A stretch of DNA of 64,000 bases from a phage. The stretch lies in the NCBI GenBank assembly GCA_014685065.1, contig GCA_014685065.1_4092.2; one strand, 5' to 3'. Each line of letters starts with the position of its first letter. Position 1 is the stretch's first letter. Below are positions 24,373 through 37,180 of this stretch, piece after piece. The translations under genes and the position numbers were made by a program. The notes beneath the pieces were generated by a model. That model did no database searches. It was not told the origin of the DNA and worked only from the letters and a program-made list of their open reading frames with translations.

Positions 24373-25035
24373 ATGATGAAATCAAAATTAGGTTTGTTTT
24401 ATAAAAACTATTTTTTTAAACAACGTAAATTTATAAAAAAATATTTCTCTGGCGAGAAGTCTAGTCCTATAATCTTTAAAAGACCAAGTTATAATACTTA
24501 CTTAGCTGGTGCTAAACAGTCTAAGAAATTTATTACTCTTTTACATAAAAACAAAATTAAAGCTTCTTATGTTGAAACGAGAAGAAACTCATCAATAACT
24601 CCTGGTGATTTTATTGAGTACGGATGTTTCAATATTAAGTACAATGATAATACATACTTTATGGATATTGATTGTAATACATCCAATCTTTTTAACATTG
24701 TAGTAAATCCATTAAAACAATATAATGTTTATGGTGATTCTATTATCAAATTAATCAAAAACAAAGATGGCTTTGATTTTGAAATAAATGTTTTAGATGA
24801 TAATTTTGACGAAGTACCCGTAAACCCTGAAATCTGTGATATTTTAAACAGTTTAAAAGGTAGTACCTACAATATATCATCTGATTTAATGTTTCAGTAC
24901 TCATTAATCCATAAAGATATTGAAAAGTATATTGAATGCTCCAGAATTTTGAATTTTCTCTATGATGAATTTAAAAAGAGTTCTAAAATAACTGCATACA
25001 CTCTGTACAATATTCCTAAAATGGTGAATCTTTGA
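24373..25035 (+). CDS. Lys-rich hypothetical protein
   Basis: RBS AAGGAG; 220-aa ORF converging on the minus-strand cassette. Confidence 0.5.
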   Translation: MMKSKLGLFYKNYFFKQRKFIKKYFSGEKSSPIIFKRPSYNTYLAGAKQSKKFITLLHKNKIKASYVETRRNSSITPGDFIEYGCFNIKYNDNTYFMDIDCNTSNLFNIVVNPLKQYNVYGDSIIKLIKNKDGFDFEINVLDDNFDEVPVNPEICDILNSLKGSTYNISSDLMFQYSLIHKDIEKYIECSRILNFLYDEFKKSSKITAYTLYNIPKMVNL

Positions 25036-25421
25036 CAAATACAGTACTGGCAACTCCACCGTCTGTAATATTTTGTCCAGTACTGTAAATTTGTATACCA
25101 TCGGTTAAGTAAGTTCTGTATAAAGTTGCTGTAACATATACGTTATTCATCTCTATTGGTAGTACACATTTGGTATAGGCCGACGCATCGGTTTGTGTAC
25201 CTATACCTAATTGTCTTGTGTTATAACCAGTTGAGTAAACACCTAATAAAGTTATAATATGATTAGAAAAATATTAATAACCCAAACTATTGAGAACCTC
25301 TACTGTACAACGTACCATCTGACATAAGGGCAAAAACTGTCTTATCAGATGAAGCTATTTTTGTAACAGAAGGTTGTATGTTCTTTTTTGATGATGTGAT
25401 AATTCTTCGAAAGGGTAGCAT
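25016..25421 (-). pseudogene. decayed remnant of MLPF-leader RCC1-like paralog
   Basis: starts MLPFRRIITS... with intact upstream module, stops after 44 codons; RCC1-like fragment LGVYSTGYNTRQLGIGTQ continues in another frame to stop at 25016-25018. Confidence 0.5.
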
Positions 25422-25492
25422 TGTATCCTCCAAATGTAAATCGTTATTATATTTAGGACAAAAAATGCCAGTACAAGGCACTGGCATAAAAT
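25422..25492 (-). promoter_or_regulatory. cassette intergenic module (terminator hairpin + TATAAT + GGAGG)
   Basis: GCCAGTGCCTTGTACTGGC hairpin, T-run, TAAATATAAT, GGAGG upstream of remnant ATG. Confidence 0.5.
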
Positions 25493-26662
25493 CTAAGCAG
25501 AAGGCATATCCTTCATCTTAATAAATGAAAATTGTGTACCAGTATTTGTGGTTTGATCAGTAAAATATGAATTACTACCAGCCCAGTACAATTCATTATT
25601 GACTATACAATATATAACAGAACTCGAACTCTGTGAATACACACGACTTATATTTGATTGTTCTACTCCAGTACTGAACTGAACTACTCCCAACTGTGAA
25701 CTTGGTATTACATTAGTTGGTCTACCTAAACCGTTAACACCCGCTCCACCACCACATGTATATACTCCAGTACTATCAGTTGATATATTAACATAACCAT
25801 TTCCAGCATTTTCAAATAGTATTTCACTGGGAACAACACCAAATCCTGTAAGATCTATTTTCCTGAATGTAGTATAAACCGTAGAACCGCCAACACCTCT
25901 TCCACCATAATCATTAGAACCAGCCATATAGATACTATATCCAGAACTTCCTAAACATAATAACTGTACGTTGTCATATAATATTTGCATAGATATAACG
26001 TTATCAGGAATACTCAATACCGTAAAAGTAGTTAAAGAAGAACTTCCAATATTACTACCAACCGATGTTCCACATCTGTAGTACTTACCGCCTTTTATAT
26101 AATGGAACGATGAACCGCCTAACTTATGTGCTCCTATTGCACTTACCCCAGTATCTATAAGAATGGGAGATACAACTTTGTTATTAACACCTAACTCAGA
26201 TCTACTGTTCATACCGAACCCATATAAACGACCATCTAACATCAATATTAGTGTACTACCGGAAGTACCCGCTGACGTAAATTCTATATTCTTTATTTGC
26301 GACACGTCAATACCTACAAATAATGAAGTTACTTCAGTCCAGTTAACATATGAACCACTAGCCCCAAAATATCCACCCATGTATAGACCTGCACAATATA
26401 ATTTATTATCAACAGTCTTTATTAATGTACCGGATACACACGCCCAAAAATCATCAACTTCATAGGGTACATGTACCCAACCACCTAATACATCACTAGC
26501 ATCCCCTGTACCTAATTTATAGTTCGAACCAGAACCACGCATGTACATATTCCCTGTACTATAAAGTAATCCGACATGTAATTGACTACCATCCAATTTC
26601 TTTATTTCAGGAAGAGTTGGTTTAATATTTCCGTACTTTAACATTCTTCCAAAAGGTAACAT
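25493..26662 (-). CDS. RCC1-like beta-propeller protein with MLPF leader
   Basis: N-terminus MLPFGRMLKYGNI; repeated L(Y/W)xxGxNxxG(Q)xG blades; RBS GGAG. Confidence 0.7.
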   Translation of the reverse strand: MLPFGRMLKYGNIKPTLPEIKKLDGSQLHVGLLYSTGNMYMRGSGSNYKLGTGDASDVLGGWVHVPYEVDDFWACVSGTLIKTVDNKLYCAGLYMGGYFGASGSYVNWTEVTSLFVGIDVSQIKNIEFTSAGTSGSTLILMLDGRLYGFGMNSRSELGVNNKVVSPILIDTGVSAIGAHKLGGSSFHYIKGGKYYRCGTSVGSNIGSSSLTTFTVLSIPDNVISMQILYDNVQLLCLGSSGYSIYMAGSNDYGGRGVGGSTVYTTFRKIDLTGFGVVPSEILFENAGNGYVNISTDSTGVYTCGGGAGVNGLGRPTNVIPSSQLGVVQFSTGVEQSNISRVYSQSSSSVIYCIVNNELYWAGSNSYFTDQTTNTGTQFSFIKMKDMPSA

Positions 26663-26672
26663 AATTTTCTCC

Positions 26673-35868: not shown

Positions 35869-35876
35869 ATTCCCTC

Positions 35877-37079
35877 CTATTGTTGCCATAACTGCGTTGG
35901 CATTAATGTTAGTGTAGTAATACTATAAGTACCATTAGGTAATCTACCACCATTTCCATTCCAGCCACCACATGCATATAATTTATAATCTTTAGTAATT
36001 ATTATGGTTCTGCTCCAATCTTTAGATGCCATAAGAACATTGTCATAACCACCACTTATTGCACTAAGATTAAAAATATTCCAAGTTCTAACTAATGTAT
36101 TAGTTCCATTACCTTCTTGACCATATGAGTTAGCACCACTACTTCTAACATATGGTGCGTATTGTGCCATAGGTGCACCAATTGATGCATTTCCCATATT
36201 ACTTGGACAAATAAAAGTACTGTACTTACTTACATCAACCGTGACCGATGTGTTCCTAATTGGTGTTAGCTGATTTACCGATGTAGTCGTACCATTACCA
36301 GCTTGTCCAGTACTGTTAGCCCCGCTATAATATACAGACCCACCAGTAGTAAACCACCAAGTAACATCGTATGTAGTACTAATATGTTCTACATTACTAA
36401 TCACGAATTTGTTCAAATATACAACAGAACTACCACCACATCCACTTTCACCAAAGTTATCCTTACCACAAAACCATGCATCTTTATTTGATTTGATATA
36501 GTGCGTTCCTTGTAATGAACATGCCATATGTGTAACTTCACCCATATTAGTCATAACTGTGAGTGTAGGGATGGAATTTTTATTACCAGAGCCACATTCA
36601 CCATTGGTATTTCTTCCACACGCAATTACTCTACCATCGGTTAATAATATTCTAGTACTTTCACCTATATATACACTCTTGATCATATTAGCCATAACAC
36701 CTATTTTATTAAATGCAACAGTAACATCAGTCCATGTTGTCAAATAACCATTAACAGGTGTTGCATCTCCATAATCAGAAAATGCACCAACCGACCCAGT
36801 GTAGTATATTTTATTATCCAAATCAATCATCAATGAACCTTGAACACCAAGCCAAAAGGCTGCACAGTTCCTTGCAAGTACTGTAAATGACGAAACTGCT
36901 GCTGAATTCCCAAGACCAAATTGATAAAAGTTATTACTACCATAACCATATAAAGTATTAGTTGGGTTATGGAGATACATACAGTTTGTATAATGTTGTT
37001 GTAAAACATCTGAGAACTCTACAGGTTCTGGACCTGGTGCAATATTTGCGTACTTAACCATTCTTCCAAAAGGTAACAT
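35877..37079 (-). CDS. RCC1-like beta-propeller protein with MLPF leader, first gene of cassette
   Basis: MLPFGRMVKYANI; RBS AAGGAGGGAAA. Confidence 0.7.
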   Translation of the reverse strand: MLPFGRMVKYANIAPGPEPVEFSDVLQQHYTNCMYLHNPTNTLYGYGSNNFYQFGLGNSAAVSSFTVLARNCAAFWLGVQGSLMIDLDNKIYYTGSVGAFSDYGDATPVNGYLTTWTDVTVAFNKIGVMANMIKSVYIGESTRILLTDGRVIACGRNTNGECGSGNKNSIPTLTVMTNMGEVTHMACSLQGTHYIKSNKDAWFCGKDNFGESGCGGSSVVYLNKFVISNVEHISTTYDVTWWFTTGGSVYYSGANSTGQAGNGTTTSVNQLTPIRNTSVTVDVSKYSTFICPSNMGNASIGAPMAQYAPYVRSSGANSYGQEGNGTNTLVRTWNIFNLSAISGGYDNVLMASKDWSRTIIITKDYKLYACGGWNGNGGRLPNGTYSITTLTLMPTQLWQQ

Positions 37080-37128
37080 ATTTCCCTCCTTTATTTGTTA
37101 TATCATATTTACCACAAAAAGAAAACCC

Positions 37129-37157
37129 TTGACATCCTTTCTGGACTCATTTATAAT
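37129..37157 (+). promoter_or_regulatory. consensus sigma70 promoter TTGACA - 17 nt - TATAAT for tandem array A; divergent from cassette
   Basis: TTGACA 37129-37134, TATAAT 37152-37157; RBS AAGGAG before ATG 37181. Confidence 0.75.
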
Positions 37158-37180
37158 AGAAAAAATATAAGGAGAAATTC

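Follow-up and report, generated by a model that had tools for sequence, protein, structure and literature searches.

The stretch of phage DNA analysed here, referred to as the window, is 64,000 nucleotides long (GenBank assembly GCA_014685065.1, contig GCA_014685065.1_4092.2) and derives from an Asteriusvirus, a Rak2-like jumbo coliphage of the 121Q/PBECO4/G17 type. The segment from 25016 to 37180 carries an array of genes whose products share a short N-terminal leader; part of it is 99.6% identical to vB_EcoM_G17 and Sharanji, and 121Q, PBECO4, SP27 and others match it mosaically. The array contains ten full tagged genes (ATGs at 37079, 35868, 34688, 33477, 32257, 30997, 30189, 29005, 27852 and 26662), which together with one 44-residue remnant (ATG at 25421) span 25287–37079 on the minus strand. 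In a six-frame search of the whole 64 kb, open reading frames (ORFs) starting with MLPF were found on the minus strand between 25.4 and 37.1 kb and nowhere else in the window. The original prediction, made from the sequence alone, had described ten consecutive minus-strand leader genes, one of them frameshifted, plus a decayed remnant, and this description was confirmed. The frameshift in the ninth gene is genuine, as the RCC1 blades run on in another frame to position 26663 (tblastn), and the resulting 269-residue form is also present in G17, 121Q and phAPEC6. The genes are numbered g1 to g10 in descending coordinates:

35877–37079, minus strand: g1, leader plus RCC1-like seven-bladed propeller, 400 residues (ORF, Pfam RCC1 families, AlphaFold2, Foldseek)
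34759–35868, minus strand: g2, leader plus RCC1-like propeller, 369 residues, translationally coupled to g1 and without a junction cassette (Pfam)
33549–34688, minus strand: g3, leader plus RCC1-like propeller, 379 residues, a 121Q-type allele inside an otherwise G17-like array (Pfam)
32329–33477, minus strand: g4, leader plus RCC1-like propeller, 382 residues (Pfam)
31070–32257, minus strand: g5, leader plus RCC1-like propeller, 395 residues (Pfam)
30260–30997, minus strand: g6, leader plus TNF-like/glycine-rich (polyglycine) head, 245 residues
29014–30189, minus strand: g7, leader plus RCC1-like propeller, 391 residues (Pfam)
27863–29005, minus strand: g8, leader plus RCC1-like propeller, 380 residues, coupled to g7 (Pfam)
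26663–27852, minus strand: g9, frameshifted RCC1 paralog, a 269-residue ORF at 27043–27852 plus an out-of-frame remainder at 26663–27042 (tblastn)
25493–26662, minus strand: g10, leader plus RCC1-like propeller, 389 residues (Pfam)
25287–25421, minus strand: remnant, degenerate leader MLPFRRIITSS... plus first blade, 44 residues, with its own hairpin, TAAATA box and ribosome-binding site upstream

The leader is shared as originally described, and is slightly more variable than the proposed MLPF(G/A)RM(V/I/M)(K/N)YGNI; the consensus of the window genes is MLPF[GAS]RM[VIML][KNR]Y[GA]N[IE]. When the nine propeller paralogs are aligned, 15 columns are invariant, 9 of them within residues 1–13, and the bodies are 23–38% identical to one another. 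The nine proteins match RCC1 families (Pfam PF25390, PF00415 and PF13540) and all belong to phrog_4219. PF00415 or PF13540 was found above its curated cut-off in eight of the nine; for g9 and g10 the RLD model matched only below its cut-off, and phrog_4219 was matched by both at E ≤ 1e-59. The structure of g1, the sole propeller modelled, was predicted by AlphaFold2 as a seven-bladed propeller (predicted TM score of 0.76), and Foldseek aligned the model with UVR8, the HERC2 RLD, RPGR and RCC1 at TM scores of 0.72–0.80 (E ≤ 1e-21). The proposal that the bodies are RCC1-type propellers thus stands, on the family matches in all nine and on the predicted fold of g1.

The sixth gene carries the same leader on a body unrelated to RCC1, as had been claimed for the glycine-rich protein at 30260–30997. 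The body of g6 was modelled with a confidence (pLDDT) of 92, and its predicted fold is the TNF-like plus polyglycine-rich one of glycine-rich tail-fibre heads (Pam3 gp24, gp38-like). No Pfam family matched g6, even at E = 1. Two distant homologs (P0037 and P0038) pass the model PF21722 (Gly_rich_2), and the link of g6 to this family is therefore transitive. When PDB sequences were searched with a profile of this family, the only match was a galectin, which was rejected as spurious. The AlphaFold2 model of g6 shows no folded N-terminal docking domain; the head is preceded only by the 13–17-residue tag. Among the neighbours of g6 and of the array no chaperone-like ORF was found, the immediate neighbours of g6 being other tagged genes.

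In the models the leader lies outside both predicted folds. Residues 1–31 of g1 form a low-confidence, unstructured coil, and the same applies to residues ~1–17 of g6. The possibility that the leader acts as a closing 'velcro' strand of the propeller was ruled out, since it is unstructured in the model and occurs on non-propellers. PDB sequence searches with the RCC1 profile and with two tagged proteins of phage CBB retrieved no phage virion structure with relatives of these proteins. The net charge of the tagged proteins ranges from −4 to +7 and is around zero overall, the isoelectric point ranges from 5.1 to 9.2, and lysine plus arginine make up ~6% of the residues. All tagged proteins are near-neutral in composition, with ~40% Ser/Thr/Asn/Gly, unlike DNA-embedded proteins.

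The leader is not confined to the window. A set of 63 distinct tagged proteins was assembled from Asteriusvirus, Pectobacterium phage CBB, GAP32 and three uncultured contigs of 355–371 kb. They fall into at least eight body families: RCC1, Kelch, an RCC1 plus Kelch fusion, several Laminin_G_3 groups, phrog_6011, phrog_4474 and phrog_6409. Single-linkage clustering fused the Kelch with the RCC1 proteins, and Pfam was used to separate them. In CBB the leader (MLPF.R[MLI]..Y[GA]N) is present on eleven proteins, among them three Kelch propellers (550, 552 and 554), three proteins with ConA-like lectin domains (548, 551 and 247), four phrog_6011 proteins (536, 537, 549 and 553) and a glycine-rich homolog (CBB_144). 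In GAP32 the tagged proteins are gp001 (RCC1) and gp002. The uncultured contigs came from a scan of IMG/VR with a back-translated leader pattern in which Arg was required at position 6; RaK2 was not among the matches to this pattern. One of the contigs (IMGVR_UViG_3300031417_000002, 355 kb) encodes, at 6416–8416, a tagged protein of 667 residues with an RCC1-like part (~29–269) and a Kelch part (~380–590), that is, two binding heads behind one tag. Three further IMG/VR matches, two of 548 residues on contigs of 20–23 kb (MLPFYSVKDYAN; L012 and L022) and one ORF of 12 residues (L016), look like chance and were excluded.

Several tagged genes are affected by annotation. In phAPEC6 (MK817115) the tagged ORFs starting at 3, 2434, 6063 and 7325 are unannotated or misstarted, and the annotated start of gp002 lies 36 codons upstream of its MLPF start. 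The phAPEC6 glycine-rich gene (7325–8056) is missing from the annotation, and gp004 (7716–8018), which lies within its span, appears to be a wrong-frame call. In CBB (KU574722) the 90 nt upstream of CBB_554 (~27086–27170, minus strand) encode the glycine-rich C-terminal signature ...GGAVRIIYGDDRSFPN followed by a stop codon; the GGAVRIIYGDDRSFPN signature at this position points to a second, unannotated glycine-rich gene beside the CBB terminal repeat.

The codons of the leader behave differently within and between genera. Across genera the peptide is constant and the codons are synonymous: Pro is CCT in Asteriusvirus versus CCA or CCG elsewhere, and TTT/TTC, TAT/TAC, AGA/AGG/CGT and GGA/GGG/GGT interchange; the DNA upstream of the leader is not conserved. 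The maintenance of the peptide through synonymous changes, next to unconserved upstream DNA, is a sign of selection at the protein level. In Asteriusvirus itself, 41 of 41 distinct genes have fixed leader codons, counter to the preference of the bodies (CCT is used at 33%, and GGT at 62% where the leader has GGG or GGA), and codons 1–7 are identical in all ten window genes. This freezing of the codons points to concerted evolution at the DNA level.

A different peptide is found on related bodies in other phages. The body of g1 (residues 24–398) shares 37% identity with gp3 from the rV5-like coliphage A7_1, and is equally close to its own neighbours in the array. A7_1 (OP795442) has three tandem RCC1 genes (6935–8134, 8148–9284 and 9294 onward), all of which start with MLEM(L/M)NL; the third lies in a stretch without an annotated gene. 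Nearly all of the 46 glycine-rich homologs retrieved start with either an MLPF...YGN-like sequence or M(L/I)E(L/M)L, the latter being the start of most such homologs in the protein database, and gp19 of PVP-SE1, one of these homologs, starts with MFEMML. In a phiTE/rV5-like genome of ~150 kb, a lectin-like protein of the GAP32_002 type ('LDIDF'; 2459–3109) starts with MNEMLMLG. The RCC1, glycine-rich and 'LDIDF' lectin-like families thus carry M(L/I/N)E(L/M)L in rV5/phiTE-like phages of ~150 kb. Since three body families occur with either tag, the tag depends only on the phage lineage and not on the body, and M(L/I)E(L/M)L appears to be another tag system, again specific to its lineage. The suggestion in the original prediction that the leader is a portable tag rather than part of the propeller fold is borne out: it is unstructured in both models, it occurs on g6 and on at least eight unrelated body families, and it varies with lineage on homologous bodies.

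Six of the ten genes are preceded by a repeated junction, which consists of a terminator hairpin (GCCAGTAC..GTACTGGC), a T-run, a TAAATA box, ~22 nt, a ribosome-binding site (AAAGGAGG) and the leader. The other four are tightly coupled to the preceding gene and have the ribosome-binding site and leader only, the leader still being kept. The repeat measures ~120 bp, of which ~70–75 nt lie upstream and the remainder covers the first ~15 codons; the repeats were grouped as families D1, D2 and D3. The annotation of G17 has predicted terminators at the same hairpins. The junctions are located as follows:

37031–37155, minus strand: junction-like upstream region of g1 (TAAATA box, ribosome-binding site, leader), at the array head
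34643–34764, minus strand: junction repeat at g3; breakpoint versus G17
33434–33553, minus strand: junction repeat at g4; breakpoint versus G17 and 121Q
32207–32333, minus strand: junction repeat (hairpin terminator, T-run, TAAATA box, ribosome-binding site, first ~17 codons; D1, D2, D3), upstream of and into g5; breakpoint versus G17
30954–31074, minus strand: junction repeat at g6
30141–30264, minus strand: junction repeat at g7

The breakpoints of the blastn alignment between the window and G17 coincide with these repeats in three of three cases (32207–32333, 33434–33550 and 34643–34756). At 32207–32333 lies the exact overlap of the alignments to G17, which carries one additional gene at this point; relative to G17, the window has one gene fewer and a different allele at another position. 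The DNA of g2–g3 is 99.3% identical to 121Q and the remainder 99.2–99.7% identical to G17, which makes the array a recombinant mosaic. At the protein level g2 is 99.7% identical to G17_00072, and g3 is just 64% identical to the nearest G17 and phAPEC6 genes. A TAAATA box ~22 nt upstream of the ribosome-binding site was found in the window and also at CBB_552 and at GAP32_001 and GAP32_002; the CBB paper describes a T4-late-like ATAAATA motif before structural genes. Judged by this motif, late expression of the tagged genes is plausible.

Virion proteomics, which the original prediction had proposed as a check, has already been published, with a positive outcome, for orthologs in phAPEC6, CBB and GAP32 rather than for the window phage itself. 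The phAPEC6 virion proteome (2020) contains eight RCC1-like proteins (gp003, 005, 006, 007, 009, 010, 549 and 551). Mass spectrometry (MS) detected 62 of the 551 proteins of this phage, including 8 of its 11 annotated paralogs (hypergeometric P = 2e-6). In CBB, 9 of the 11 tagged proteins are in the published MS table, some with 35–51% coverage (P = 1e-6, using a conservative bound of 83 of 554 for the detected set), and GAP32 gp001 (RCC1) is listed as an MS-verified virion protein in the CBB paper (2017). The MS-verified structural proteins of CBB that are without a GAP32 homolog are all tagged (six of six); the CBB authors pointed to the proteins absent from GAP32 as the set in which to seek whisker proteins. 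Among the window genes, g4 (gp549, 92% identical), g7 (gp006, 87%), g9 and g10 (gp010, 99%) have MS-detected orthologs in phAPEC6; the 269-residue product of g9 is 99% identical to gp007, for which three peptides (17.5% coverage) were found. The unannotated phAPEC6 tagged ORFs, including the glycine-rich gene, could not be detected in the published, annotation-based MS search. Peptides such as (M)LPFGR or YGNIAPGPEPVEF... in MS data would mark a retained tag.

Overall, the 13-residue leader is very probably a virion-incorporation tag. A more specific reading, to which we give about an even chance, is that it is specific to the phage lineage and docks a shuffling set of adhesin heads to the outside of the virion. 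The flexible leader, outside the folded body, would attach its protein to an acceptor of the Rak2-like virion that all tagged proteins have in common, and these proteins would make up a diversifying set of small heads for binding, namely propellers of the RCC1 and Kelch types, ConA-like lectin domains and a TNF-like/glycine-rich adhesin head. These heads would most probably be found outside the particle, candidate sites being the hair-like fibres on capsid and sheath or a baseplate fibre network, and they may broaden or modulate adhesion to host surfaces. The genes would be expressed late from TAAATA-type promoters, and the content of the array would change by homologous recombination between the ~120-bp junction repeats, with the leader codons kept identical within a genome. 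We lean towards an external adhesin role because of the lectin and propeller binding folds, the gp38-like head of g6 and the near-neutral composition. Both roles that had been proposed from the sequence, a receptor-binding repertoire and a set of packaged or injected proteins, remain the leading candidates, with the evidence leaning to the former.

A number of points weigh against the docking of external adhesins. Whole-virion MS does not separate inside from outside, and the peptide counts in phAPEC6 are low (1–5 peptides). A peptide of 13 residues is far shorter than the known anchor domains of receptor-binding proteins. GAP32 has two tagged genes, yet hairs have not been reported for it, and none of the rV5-like phages that carry the second tag is known to have hairs. 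The late promoters are assigned by motif only, and the AlphaFold2 input for g1 was a shallow alignment of nine sequences. Besides the unassigned long hairs of the capsid and sheath, 121Q and phAPEC6 have an inner body, also unassigned, and the head is of the T4 type, for which a short N-terminal capsid-targeting sequence (CTS) is a known precedent.

The last two points also favour the strongest alternative, in which the leader is a T4-type CTS that binds the prohead scaffold core. The diverse tagged proteins would then be packaged in the head, possibly in the inner body, and ejected with the DNA to bind or inhibit host proteins, e.g. of defence systems, and the array would mirror the T-even internal-protein locus. 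The leader is short, strictly N-terminal and near-invariant on diverse bodies, as such a sequence would be; Rak2-like phages have genes for a T4-type major capsid protein, portal and prohead protease; the tagged proteins occur in virions in small amounts; the locus is highly plastic among nearly identical phages; and several tagged genes lie outside structural modules, CBB_144 being located between nucleotide-reductase genes. However, no Glu-type protease site recurs consistently after the leader, and Glu is missing from the first ~25 residues in five of the ten window proteins. A search for a conserved site behind the leader (L/I-x-E or any common motif) found none, with the proviso that the specificity of the Rak2-like protease may differ. 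The proteins are near-neutral and not basic, their folds are classic extracellular binding modules, one of which matches a tail-fibre receptor-recognition head, and the visible feature specific to CBB, whose specific structural proteins are all tagged, is its external whiskers. We therefore regard packaging as unlikely, though as a serious contender to docking on the outside.

The leader could also be recognised by something else than an acceptor on the virion, for instance by an assembly factor, a chaperone of its own or an enzyme that processes or modifies the protein, with the bodies themselves giving the virion association. The tag is disordered and exposed in the models, and glycine-rich tail-fibre heads need a dedicated chaperone in Pam3. 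At least eight unrelated folds would, however, each need a separate route of virion entry, yet 9 of 11 tagged proteins of CBB and 8 of 11 of phAPEC6 are incorporated, and no chaperone-like gene accompanies the array, which makes this explanation improbable. More doubtful still is that conservation acts mainly at the level of DNA or RNA, the leader codons being part of a regulatory or recombination cassette that is homogenised by gene conversion and the peptide having no function. The identity of codons 1–7 within the window, the fixed codons of Asteriusvirus and the breakpoints on the junction repeats are what such a cassette would produce, but the four genes without the upstream cassette retain the leader, the peptide is conserved across genera despite synonymous codons and unconserved upstream DNA, and the tag correlates with virion incorporation in two proteomes. 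That the published annotation as DNA/chromosome-condensation proteins is right, with the leader as part of the RCC1 fold (e.g. as a closing strand), is hardly credible and the name 'DNA condensation protein' is without support: apart from RCC1 family membership and the speculation of the phAPEC6 authors on the ordering of packaged DNA, the leader lies outside the predicted fold and is also present on non-propeller bodies, the proteins with their net charge around zero and ~6% K+R have no DNA-binding character, the name stems from eukaryotic RCC1, an exchange factor for Ran, which bacteria do not have, and the RCC1-like fold is a general binding scaffold (UVR8, HERC2 and RPGR are among the top matches).

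Returning to the docking of external heads, a broader form of it may be considered, which we hold as a tentative possibility. This 'plug-and-display' arrangement would be used by Rak2-like phages and, with the other tag, by many myophages of ~150–250 kb. Binding domains of a dozen unrelated kinds could each be mounted on a single virion acceptor by a peptide of 5–13 residues, which would be both necessary and sufficient for this. The result would be a combinatorial coat on hair-like fibres, with heads swapped between lineages by tag exchange and shuffled within a lineage via the tag-encoding repeats. The occurrence of the same body families with a second tag in other large myophages suggests that such tagging is a design principle of wider use. 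Should the tag prove sufficient for incorporation, one of the largest unexplained gene families of Asteriusvirus/Mimasvirus, now mis-annotated as 'DNA condensation', would obtain a role, and the unassigned hairs or whiskers, or alternatively the inner body, would have concrete candidate proteins. In that case there would also be an explanation for the variability of this locus, which is greater than anywhere else in these otherwise nearly identical coliphages (candidates for therapy), and jumbo phages would gain a very short handle for displaying or packaging foreign proteins, comparable to the CTS in T4.

The array is flanked by two groups of small genes on the plus strand. At 37181–41041 there is a tandem array of ~17 very small ORFs (59–81 residues), at least 14 of which belong to two paralog families (M[HN]KE[YF]Y...). 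At 21551–24331 there are eight consecutive small ORFs (104–141 residues) with hydrophobic, membrane-like N-termini, which are conserved in G17, 121Q and slurp01; blastp detects similarity among them between the first two only. The GC skew is inverted (negative) across 24–42 kb versus the rest of the window; this is not explained by the coding strand alone, because the inversion also covers the plus-strand small-ORF array at 37–41 kb.

The original prediction had held that no such phage module was described, and this did not hold up. Multiple RCC1 homologs in 121Q and PBECO4 were reported in the CBB paper (2017), and the phAPEC6 paper (2020) describes 'eleven similar RCC1-like proteins' with a speculated role in ordering packaged DNA; the genes of the cluster are annotated as DNA/chromosome condensation proteins in published Asteriusvirus papers. 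The published cluster of phAPEC6, 121Q and PBECO4 consists of the same genes as in the window, eight of them found by virion MS, but these papers are without mention of the shared leader, of tagged non-RCC1 bodies or of junction repeats. A full-text search of the literature with six spellings of the leader peptide returned no paper, and the tag goes unmentioned in the publications on Sharanji, fEgEco12 and phiTE. The shared tag, its breadth and its coupling to a cassette-shuffling repeat thus appear to be undescribed. The system is not categorically new, as the RCC1 array and its virion association have been published and both N-terminal virion-targeting peptides (the T4 CTS) and docking-plus-head adhesins are known kinds.

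Phages with multiple receptor-binding proteins (the tailspikes of CBA120, K1-5, and the branched fibres of phiK64-1/RaK2) use conserved N-terminal anchor modules. As proposed for the window, alternative receptor-binding bodies share an N-terminal part that plugs into one scaffold, and the bodies are exchanged horizontally; the anchors, however, are folded domains of at least ~100 residues on large trimeric spikes or depolymerases, whereas the tag is an unstructured peptide of 13 residues on mostly globular heads of 170–400 residues. The glycine-rich tail-fibre head of Pam3 requires a dedicated chaperone, and its authors compare it with the S16 gp38 adhesin. Pam3 gp24 and the gp38-type adhesins of T2 and S16 consist of a docking region and a glycine-rich receptor-recognition head; g6 has the same predicted head, with the 13-residue tag replacing the docking domain.

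The CTS of T4 reads MKTYQEFIAE. It is found on the internal proteins IPI, IPII and IPIII, encoded at the polymorphic T-even internal-protein locus, and resembles the window leader in being a short, near-invariant N-terminal peptide on unrelated proteins that are incorporated into the virion of a phage with a T4-type head, at a fast-changing locus (PMC3012670). It differs in that it has no sequence similarity to the window leader, that no conserved Glu cleavage site follows the tag, and that the window bodies are large and neutral rather than small and basic. The closest parallel for the shuffling is formed by the PeSLs, reportedly described by Arbiol et al. in 2010 as promoter-stem-loop mobile cassettes that bring about modular shuffling in T4-type genomes. 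These are short intergenic repeats with a hairpin and a promoter, which flank variable genes and coincide with recombination breakpoints, and the junctions of the window have the same features, the promoter being assigned by motif. The window repeat differs from the PeSLs in that its promoter looks late-type and in that ~45 nt of it belong to the coding sequence and specify the tag.

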